Source of the DNA: a virus
Lineage: Duplodnaviria > Heunggongvirae > Uroviricota > Caudoviricetes
Direction: 5' to 3' (one strand)
DNA length: 39,290 nucleotides
IMG/VR virus record: IMGVR_UViG_2579778601_000004
Of this stretch, positions 9,252 to 12,200 are shown in pieces. Position 1 is the stretch's first letter. Each line of letters begins with the position of its first letter. The notes under the pieces are model-generated. The model searched no databases. It was not told where the DNA came from and saw only the letters and a list, made by a program, of their open reading frames with translations. A program made the position numbers and the translations under genes.

Positions 9252-12200
9252 ATGACCACTGTGAATAAAAAGTTAAAAAAAACTGCATCTGGCGCGATTA
9301 CATGGTCGGTAATTGTTACCCAGATATTATCTCCAGTTTCTCTTTCTTTGATCCCAGCAAACAGTTTTGCATCATCTGGTAATAAAGATGTTACGCAAAT
9401 TTATGCCAGCGATGAGCATGCAAATAAAGTGGCCTCATTTGCAGCAAGTGCAGGTCAGAGCCTGGCGAATAATAATGCAAGTAGTTTTGCTGTAAATACT
9501 TTATCAACTCAGGCGACAAAAGAGGTCGTCGACTGGTTGCAACAATATGGCAATGCGCGCATCAAGCTTAATGTCGATGATTCTTTTTCCTTGAAGGATT
9601 CATCATTCGACTTTTTATATCCATGGCTGGATACTCAGGATTATGTGTTATTCAGTCAGACATCACTACATCGTACTGATGACCGAAATCAGACCAATAT
9701 TGGTTTGGGGATTCGTCATTTCACTCCTGATAACGCAATGTTGGGTGCGAATGTTTTCTATGATTACGATTTAAGTCGTAGTCACTCTCGTGCAGGTTTT
9801 GGGGTTGAGTACTGGAGGGATTATTTCAGGCTTGGTGTAAATACCTATTTTGGTCTATCTGACTGGAAGAACAGTCGTGATATTGATGATTATCTGGAAA
9901 GACCTGCAAATGGCTGGGATTTTTCTGCTGAAGGATGGCTACCTGCTTATCCGCAATTAGGGGCATCTATTCAGTTTGAAAAATATTATGGTAAAAATGT
10001 CGGGTTATTTGGAAGCGATAACCTGCAGGAAAACCCTTACGCAGTTACTGGGGGAATTTCTTATACACCAGTTCCTCTGATTAAGTTTTCTGCACAGCAT
10101 AAGCAAGGACAGAGCAACACTCACGATACAACCTTTGGTGTTGAGTTTAATTATCGCCCGGGCGTTTCCTTGGCTGAACAGCTTAGCAGCGATAATGTTG
10201 CAGTTATGCGAGAAGTCCAGAACCGGCGTTATGATTTTGTTGAACGAAATAACAACATTGTTCTGGAGTACAAGAAGAAGCATGCACTGAAAATCAGTTT
10301 GCCAGAGTCTGTTCAGGGGGAGGGGGAATCAATCATCCCTGTAACACTGACAATCAACAATGCTAGTGGTGGTATCAAGTCTGTACAGTGGAATGATAGT
10401 GCATTCACTGCGGCTGGCGGCAAGATCAGTGGAAATGGCACATCATGGCAGATCACTTTACCGGCTTATAAAAGCGAAGGTGTAAATTCGTGGAATGTTG
10501 GAGCCACAGTACAGGATAACAGAGGCAACGTTTCCAACTATGCCGTGATGAATATTAGCGTTACTGATAGTGGTGTCTCGACGGCTGATTCGTCTTTTAC
10601 ACTGGATGGAGATTCGTCGCCGACAATCTCTGCTGATAGCCAATCCACTTATCCGATAGTATTAAGCCTGAAAGATAGTAACGGTAAGGCATTAACCGGA
10701 CTGGCTGATGACATTGAAATGTCAGTGGAATTTACAGCAGATAGCAATAGTGCTCGACAGCGTGAAACGGTAACTGCTCCGTCATTAGGCGCGGTAGAGG
10801 AAATCTCTGCTGGGGTATATCGCTCTGTTCTGACTGCTGGTTCGCAGGCTGGTACGGTACGTGTAACTGCAAAAGTTCAGGGAAAAACCTTTACTCTGAA
10901 TATTAAGCAGGCAGCCATTACTGATAGTGATGTATCGACAGCTGATTCGTCTTTTACACTGGATGGAGATTCGTCGCCGACGATCTCTGCTGATAGCCAA
11001 TCCACTTATCCGATAGTATTAAGCCTGAAAGATAGTAACGGTAAGGCATTAACCGGACTGGCTGATGACATTGAAATGTCAGTGGAATTTACAGCAGATA
11101 GCAATAGTGCTCGACAGCGTGAAACGGTAACTGCTCCGTCATTAGGCGCGGTAGAGGAAATCTCTGCTGGTGTATATCGCTCTGTTCTGGCTGCTGGTTC
11201 GCAGGCTGGTACGGTACGTGTAACTGCAAAAGTTCAGGGAAAAACCTTTACTCTGAATATTAAGCAGGCAGCCATTACTGATAGTGATGTATCGACAGCT
11301 GATTCGTCTTTTACACTGGATGGAGATTCGTCGCCGACGATCTCTGCTGATAGCCAATCCACTTATCCGATAGTATTAAGCCTGAAAGATAGTAACGGTA
11401 AGGCATTAACCGGACTGGCTGATGACATTGAAATGTCAGTGGAATTTACAGCAGATAGCAATAGTGCTCGACAGCGTGAAACGGTAACTGCTCCGTCATT
11501 AGGCGCGGTAGAGGAAATCTCTGCTGGGGTATATCGCTCTGTTCTGGCTGCTGGTTCGCAGGCTGGTACGGTACGTGTAACTGCAAAAGTTCAGGGAAAA
11601 ACATTTACTCTCAGTATTAAGCAAACAGCAACAACAGAACCTGATTCTGAGGTCAGTGCTGTTTTAACCGCTGCACCAGCAGAACAGGTAGTTGGTTACA
11701 ATATCAATCTACAACTGGCAGTGAAGGATTCACAAGGAAATGCAATCACTGGTGATAACACTCTGAGCTTTTATGCTCTTAACCAGGCAGAAGGAGTCGA
11801 GTTTGGGACTGTAACGGAAAAAGACGGTGTCTATAGCGCGACAGTAACTTCAAAACGAGCTGGTAAGATTACTATCGGTGTTAAATCTGATAGTCATGAT
11901 TTCTCAGGTGTTAAGAAAGAAATCACCTTTATTGAGGACCGGCAGCAGGTTACATTCTCTCAGTTTGAAGCCAGCCAAAATAATGCATTGGCTGATGGAA
12001 AACAGAGAAATATGGTAACTGTAAGCCTTGCGGACCGTTTCGGCAATGTTGTTCCTGGTTATGCTGTCACATTGTCTTTACCAGCAGGGATAACTCAAGT
12101 TGGTGGTGAACATGCTGTTTCAACTGACGAAAATGGTAATGCTATTTTTGCGTTAATAAGCTCCACTCCGGGGTCTTACGTGATTACAGCTCATGCTGGT

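Follow-up and report, generated by a model that had tools for sequence, protein, structure and literature searches.

A copy-number-variable array of near-identical Ig-like domains in a prophage-encoded inverse autotransporter of Escherichia coli

Periscope Proteins are single-chain bacterial surface proteins built from near-identical, independently folding tandem domains whose number varies between strains. Inverse autotransporters that contain Invasin_D3 repeats are expressly counted in the class (PMC9704523). One group of this kind, cluster 53 in Dataset S1 of Whelan et al. 2021 (PMC8201768), is labelled ‘YeeJ’ (UniProt A0A192CME6, E. coli) and comprises three proteins with IAT_beta, Big_1 and Invasin_D3 domains and two to three copies of a 119-amino acid (aa) Invasin_D3 repeat at 0.98 DNA identity. 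Here we describe a gene of the same design in the IMG/VR virus record IMGVR_UViG_2579778601_000004, a 39,290-nucleotide (nt) stretch of DNA that we refer to in its entirety as the window. The gene (9252–13517, plus strand) encodes a 1421-aa type Ve inverse autotransporter adhesin, 100% identical to EC958_RS06345 (WP_022645049.1) of E. coli O25b:H4 sequence type 131 (ST131) strain EC958 and also identical to the gene in strain JJ1886, and it carries three tandem copies of a 357-bp unit. The phenomenon is thus of a known kind and has probably already been catalogued. New here are a census of one to four copies across genomes, the recombinant junctions of the derived alleles, their pattern of concerted evolution, the prophage context, and the scale of the associated assembly error.

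Several other systems provide useful comparisons. The Yersinia ruckeri inverse autotransporters YrIlm and YrInv carry tandem arrays of identical Ig-like domains (Wrobel et al. 2018, as related in PMC6868369), and the same account reports that their repeat numbers are lower in short-read than in PacBio assemblies. As described there, YrIlm usually has a C-type lectin domain as its cap, whereas the adhesin has one to four near-identical units and no lectin domain that we could detect; the YrIlm figure legend displays flanking coding sequences with phage context unmentioned, whereas the adhesin lies in a lambdoid prophage. The group B streptococcal proteins Alpha C and Rib, as well as the M protein, cited in PMC9704523 as classic cases of intragenic repeat deletion, likewise change size when homologous recombination between in-frame identical repeats adds or removes whole units. 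These proteins differ in being Gram-positive and sortase-anchored, in having more repeats, and in that immune selection for shorter variants was shown experimentally. Finally, invasin, intimin, FdeC, InvD and InvE share the Ig fold of the repeat unit, and invasin and intimin also share the barrel and D00 domain, but their Ig domains are mutually divergent, whereas the repeat units of the adhesin are nearly identical.

Taken together, the evidence below makes it very likely that the array consists of three copies of one Ig-like domain that arose from an old duplication, has since been kept uniform by concerted evolution, and changes in copy number through out-of-register events, much as in Periscope Proteins. 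Tandem Repeats Finder reports a single array at 10561–11623 (period 357, 3.0 copies, 98% matches, 0% indels, score 2063), and a second repeat search places three head-to-tail copies at 357-nt spacing with starts at 10561, 10918 and 11275. These are the units named in a preliminary description of the locus, the coordinates and character of which proved correct. Neither of the adjacent 357-nt segments aligns to the units, and the array therefore contains exactly three copies and spans 10561–11631: unit 1 (u1; 10561–10917), the inner unit 2 (u2; 10918–11274) and unit 3 (u3; 11275–11631), all on the plus strand. Ungapped comparison over 357 nt gives six differences between u1 and u2 (98.3% identity), seven between u2 and u3 (98.0%) and 11 between u1 and u3 (96.9%), so the pairwise alignment suggested earlier as a check shows no substantial divergence. 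Chance is not a credible explanation for such an array. The differences are concentrated at its outer edges (sites 13, 17, 23 and 65 in u1; sites 329–356 in u3), and the unit interiors share identical runs of 188–253 nt. Neighbouring units are separated by 13 differences in total, of which only four are non-synonymous. Each unit spans 119 codons (357 = 3 × 119) and the array is in frame within the 1421-aa open reading frame (ORF); the unit as drawn begins on codon base 2, which leaves this property unaffected. On the minus strand the array has only short ORFs that recur with the unit, and an Rfam search of the window found no match.

The protein has the combination of barrel and Ig-like passenger that, judged from domain matches, identifies it as an inverse autotransporter. 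An N-terminal leader, which by eye shows a basic start, a hydrophobic stretch and ‘SFA/SS’ at approximately aa 39–42, precedes a beta-barrel that matches Pfam IAT_beta (PF11924) at aa 57–334 (E 5.6e-101; profile positions 3–279 of 279). The barrel, which would anchor the protein in the outer membrane, is N-terminal to the passenger, in which Pfam finds Invasin_D3 in eight stretches and Big_1 in five. Ten Ig-like domains can be delimited: D00 (aa 344–437), the three repeat domains (aa 438–794) and six divergent domains (aa 795–1421). A PDB sequence search returns the barrels of invasin (4E1T, 9.9e-74) and intimin (4E1S, 6.8e-63), intimin D00 (6TQD) at aa 342–441, and invasin D1–D3 (1CWV) at aa 910–1155. 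Neither Pfam nor PDB sequence searches detected a C-terminal C-type lectin or integrin-binding domain.

The 119-aa unit on its own matches Invasin_D3 above the cut-off (E 1.3e-9). An AlphaFold model of the unit, built from an alignment of paralogous domains of the same protein plus two homologues, has a predicted local distance difference test score (pLDDT) of 87.8 and a predicted template-modelling score (pTM) of 0.80. Its best structural neighbours are InvE (5N40), FdeC (4E9L), invasin (1CWV; TM 0.70, root-mean-square deviation 2.3) and InvD (5LDY). For a pair of units, AlphaFold run on the single sequence gave a model too unreliable to use (pLDDT 43). The Invasin_D3 match and the modelled fold neighbours indicate that one unit corresponds to one Ig-like domain, as had been proposed from the sequence. 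By analogy with invasin and intimin the repeats would be arranged as a rod, and the position and fold of the array suggest that it serves as a stalk.

The number of units varies between genomes. Of 5426 closed E. coli genomes, 561 (∼10%) carry the adhesin gene. Counting copies from the coverage of repeat-containing queries was rejected, as the search joins pieces that overlap in the subject and every genome would appear fully covered. Copies were instead measured with queries made of flanks only. With 1309 nt of left and 1886 nt of right flank, spans of 4266, 3909 and 3552 nt correspond to three, two and one copies. Moreover, the search joins two pieces only if they are no farther apart than 500 nt plus half the query length, so that flank-only queries of 400, 800 and 1500 nt count the records with at most one, two and three copies, respectively. 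Among 562 closed-genome records these cumulative counts are 84, 200 and 546, and the 1309 + 1886 nt query, which admits up to five copies, counts 542. The census is therefore 84 records with one copy, 116 with two, approximately 345 with three and at least one with four (CP124455, in one 4623-nt alignment), plus approximately 16 in which the gene is disrupted or truncated. Evenly sampled records agree, at 34:12:9 for three, two and one copies. The protein database also holds 1540-aa, four-copy forms on contigs of 5.13–5.16 Mb. Every length variant keeps an open frame, with one, two, three and four copies yielding 1183, 1302, 1421 and 1540 aa. Copy number thus changes without loss of frame, as anticipated from the unit length, and is not invariant across independent genomes, yet the locus is not hypervariable. 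The four-copy allele of CP124455 (1963546–1968168) is a single intact 1540-aa ORF. RefSeq nevertheless annotates it as two features, a ‘partial’ barrel pseudogene plus an ‘invasin domain 3-containing protein’, and this split looks like an annotation artefact.

The junctions of the derived alleles suggest how these changes arise. Alleles with 100% identical flanks comprise at least six distinct rearrangement products: two copies as u1 + u3 (five genomes), as u1 followed by a u2/u3 chimera, or as a u1/u2 chimera followed by u3 (two genomes); one copy as a u1/u3 chimera (two genomes); four copies as u1, u2, u2, u3; and four copies in a second, different mosaic. To judge from their sequences, these are the products expected of out-of-register homologous exchange or slippage between units, and the duplication in u1, u2, u2, u3 mirrors the deletion of u2 in u1 + u3. 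The adhesin shows two features of Periscope Proteins, namely repeats of a foldable domain at 96.9–98.3% DNA identity and a number that varies between strains, even where the flanks are identical. One of the alleles is recombinant inside a single unit.

Comparison within and between alleles points to concerted evolution. Over a 305-nt core of the unit, paralogues differ at zero to three sites within five alleles and at 12 in the sixth, the most divergent, and units from different allele groups (A, B and C) differ at 13–22 sites regardless of their position in the array. The edges of the unit (the first 23 and last 29 nt) behave in the opposite way: units of one allele differ there at three to four and six to seven sites, respectively, but alleles compared at equal position differ at only zero to three. 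Cores are therefore grouped by allele and edges by position. Could the array instead stem from a tandem duplication that happened very recently within the ST131 lineage, with no homogenisation at all? The inter-unit identity of 96.9–98.3% is what a recent event would give, and among the sampled records three copies occur only with the ST131-type allele. However, after a fresh duplication the inner junction should match the outer edges exactly, whereas approximately ten of the 52 edge positions differ between them, which argues that the duplication is old. The same inner junction is common to all allele groups, including those with flanks up to 6.2% diverged, and the duplication therefore arose once. 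In addition, all units of a group carry its own core substitutions (13–17 sites in group B, 19–22 in group C). We consider a very recent duplication highly improbable, and the data support an old duplication, predating the divergence of the known allele groups, with interiors held uniform by concerted evolution. Of the two origins offered in the preliminary description, ongoing homogenisation is therefore favoured over recent duplication. The step from two to three copies may well be recent, but the first duplication is not, and the one-copy alleles are best read, from these junctions, as deletions. The flanks of group B diverge from those of the ST131 type by only 0.56%, whereas its repeat core is 4–5% diverged and resembles that of group C (6% diverged), a pattern that indicates probable mosaic exchange of the array region between prophage alleles.

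Repeated homologous exchange between units, by gene conversion or unequal crossing-over, would keep the interiors near-identical, and the resulting identical tracts of 188–253 nt would permit occasional out-of-register recombination or replication slippage. Whether through RecA-dependent exchange or slippage, such events would remove or add whole 357-bp units with the frame undisturbed, yielding population alleles with one, two, three or four copies. The units directly follow the membrane-proximal D00, and each gain or loss would therefore lengthen or shorten the rod that holds the six distal Ig-like domains off the outer membrane. If the adhesin is expressed, alleles with eight to 11 Ig domains could differ in reach past the O25b lipopolysaccharide and capsule, and conceivably in adhesion and immune recognition.

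How often the array changes is a separate matter. A fast contingency switch resembling phase variation, acting within a clone or even a single infection, would have precedents in SasG and other Periscope Proteins, which can vary even within a colony (PMC6868369), and the six or more rearrangement products in an identical-flank background would suit it. Such a switch is nevertheless extremely unlikely here: exactly three copies are kept in approximately 96% of the closed genomes that have the ST131-type allele, and related isolates agree with one another (strains 4/0, 4/1-1, 4/4 and 2/0 all have three; DS566, DS566-1 and DS566-2 all have one). The same stability also tempers the preferred reading of an array that gains and loses units by out-of-register events, and several observations weigh against it. 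The ST131-type allele is mostly fixed, with approximately 345 closed genomes at three copies, eight at two, four at one and one at four, so turnover of copy number in this allele is slow. Some of the 12 shorter closed alleles could moreover be assembly collapses. The range of one to four copies is small beside that of classic Periscope Proteins. Insertion sequence (IS) elements (ISEc23, ISEc52, IS2 or IS3) lie inside the adhesin gene in several closed ST131 genomes, and this repeated inactivation argues against strong selection to retain the gene. Lastly, no experiment in the literature searched demonstrates expression, surface display or binding of this adhesin.

Assembly error must also be weighed, as the array had been flagged as a likely collapse hotspot. 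The evidence that it is one is indirect but strong. Identical tracts of 188–253 nt exceed the k-mers of short-read assemblers. The exact three-copy ST131 protein occurs on 906 contigs and two two-copy ST131-type proteins on at least 1000 and 249, in a collection taken to be mostly draft assemblies; in closed genomes the corresponding numbers are approximately 345 and eight. A protein-database search with the 119-aa unit, meant to broaden the set of homologues, yielded little except fragments on very small contigs, many of them orphans of 209–502 bp that contain the unit alone (e.g., a 357-bp contig with 11 members, a 335-bp contig with 22 and a 301-bp contig with 48). Many partial proteins end at approximately aa 450–683, indicating that contigs break in or just after the array because of its identical runs. 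Unit-only contigs 98–99% identical to E. coli are also filed under unrelated genera (‘Moraxella osloensis’ and ‘Acinetobacter variabilis’); the 357-bp contig CAXORL010000232.1, filed as ‘Moraxella osloensis’, is a rotation of u2 with two differences. These probably combine E. coli contamination with repeat collapse.

These same observations would fit a stronger claim, that the copy-number differences are mainly assembly artefacts, the true number being three or some other fixed value and the shorter alleles collapsed repeats. We judge this unlikely. In ST131 drafts, two-copy calls are probably artefactual in most cases, and the same may hold for a few in ‘closed’ genomes, but collapse cannot produce the four-copy allele of the closed CP124455 chromosome or the four-copy proteins on megabase contigs. 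Nor can it account for the one- and two-copy alleles of groups B and C, which have lineage-specific substitutions in every unit and come from many closed genomes and different studies; no three-copy version of either group appears in the sampled records. Genuine polymorphism overlaid by frequent collapse therefore remains our reading. As for the window itself, the earlier caution that its true copy number might differ is not borne out: it shows no sign of collapse, and its three copies match those of the approximately 345 closed genomes.

The practical consequence is that the length of the adhesin is misreported in a large share of draft assemblies, including those of the pandemic ST131 clone. 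Pangenome, core-genome multilocus sequence typing (cgMLST), vaccine-antigen and ‘gene truncation’ analyses that touch the gene will meet artefactual alleles and orphan mini-contigs, some of which appear as contamination in the assemblies of other genera. The locus also offers a data-rich case of concerted evolution and unequal exchange in a surface-protein gene, with both deletion and duplication products at hand.

The adhesin does not correspond to a named family. It falls short of the NCBIfam equivalog cut-offs for intimin (329 vs 1400), SinH (318 vs 999), the IatC N-terminal region (388 vs 2400), YchO (270 vs 508) and Inv (284 vs 710), with Ilp and YrIlm scores also far below, and it is absent from the six inverse autotransporter genes of Goh et al. 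2019 (PMC6714894). On these scores it is an unnamed inverse autotransporter, outside the E. coli families intimin, SinH/IatB, YchO/IatA and IatC. The literature search found no paper that characterises this protein or mentions that it lies in a prophage, and nothing specific on any named or characterised ST131 inverse autotransporter encoded by a prophage. The values listed for cluster 53 coincide with those of this gene, and the two are probably the same; the label ‘YeeJ’ would then be a misnomer, as no NCBIfam cut-off for a named inverse autotransporter is reached. The cluster 53 range of two to three repeats comes from three proteins, as against the range of one to four found here across 562 closed-genome records. 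The E. coli O25b:H4 genome CP015085, which has the same IS configuration as the window, is presumably the source of the A0A192C... accessions. Identity with FdeC was also considered, on account of its similar length, but the adhesin has no significant sequence match to the FdeC structure 4E9L and lies in a different chromosomal context, and the identification was rejected.

A scan of one genome per species matched only a truncated Escherichia albertii homologue and the 357-bp orphan contig. The former, in E. albertii NBRC 107761, is an N-terminal segment of 237 aa that is 80% identical and runs off the end of a 23.8-kb contig, indicating that the gene family exists in that species. A further homologue, 71% identical over the unit and found on short-read contigs of 2.6–2.9 kb in assemblies of sequencing runs, has only one copy, with the next domain immediately after it, and may represent either the ancestral single-copy state or another collapse.

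The whole window (1–39290) is a lambdoid prophage that is integrated next to icd in ST131. Its gene order is integrase (1–1143, minus strand), exo/bet/gam, repressor region, O (7285–8304, plus strand), P (8301–9002, plus strand), adhesin, an alpha/beta hydrolase on the opposite strand, nin region, Q, lysis genes, iss and terminase (23828–25753). The adhesin gene lies between P and the nin region at all 12 of the fetched loci that display upstream context. Upstream of it, an AT-rich intergenic region (9003–9251) may contain its own promoter: a scan gave two weak sigma-70-like matches (9166–9193 and 9203–9230, plus strand), which are consensus matches only, with no enrichment over shuffled sequence. 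Twelve nt 3′ of the stop codon, a strong hairpin with a GC-rich 9-bp stem followed by a T run (13529–13549, plus strand) resembles an intrinsic terminator, at which the adhesin transcription unit would end. The position between conserved phage modules, together with this putative terminator and a possible promoter, is the layout of a prophage cargo (‘moron’) gene. The adhesin shares a mobile prophage with iss (approximately 21255–21596, minus strand, by coordinate conversion from the annotation of EC958). None of 50,697 sequenced phage records matches the adhesin gene, and there is thus no evidence of the element as an active phage.

The Red recombination genes exo and bet (3013–4475) lie approximately 5 kb from the adhesin gene. 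Repeat gain and loss might conceivably proceed mainly by phage-encoded single-strand annealing at prophage induction or replication rather than by host RecA, but we consider this quite improbable. Were it so, new adhesin lengths would arise specifically upon transfer of the phage to another host, and lysogenic conversion would be linked to length variants of a surface protein.

In the window, the alpha/beta hydrolase (BD-FAE) gene, which follows the adhesin in EC958, is split by the IS66-family element ISEc23 (approximately 13800–16330, with a target duplication of ∼8 bp). The element encodes TnpC (13829–15442), TnpB (15473–15823) and TnpA (15820–16245), and the hydrolase remnant occupies 16316–17137; all are on the minus strand. 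The exact configuration of the window recurs in CP015085, CM169489 and CP184080. Short tandem repeats of 19–43 nt (TTTACCCGAATCAGGTAAAAA-like) at 7726–7838, inside replication gene O, are most likely lambda-type origin iterons. The record of the 195-kb plasmid p23AR0151A (CP195449, 38226–58082) contains a decayed fragment of the same prophage; its integrase is frameshifted and it harbours several IS elements, and it includes the one-copy group B adhesin allele together with the hydrolase gene.

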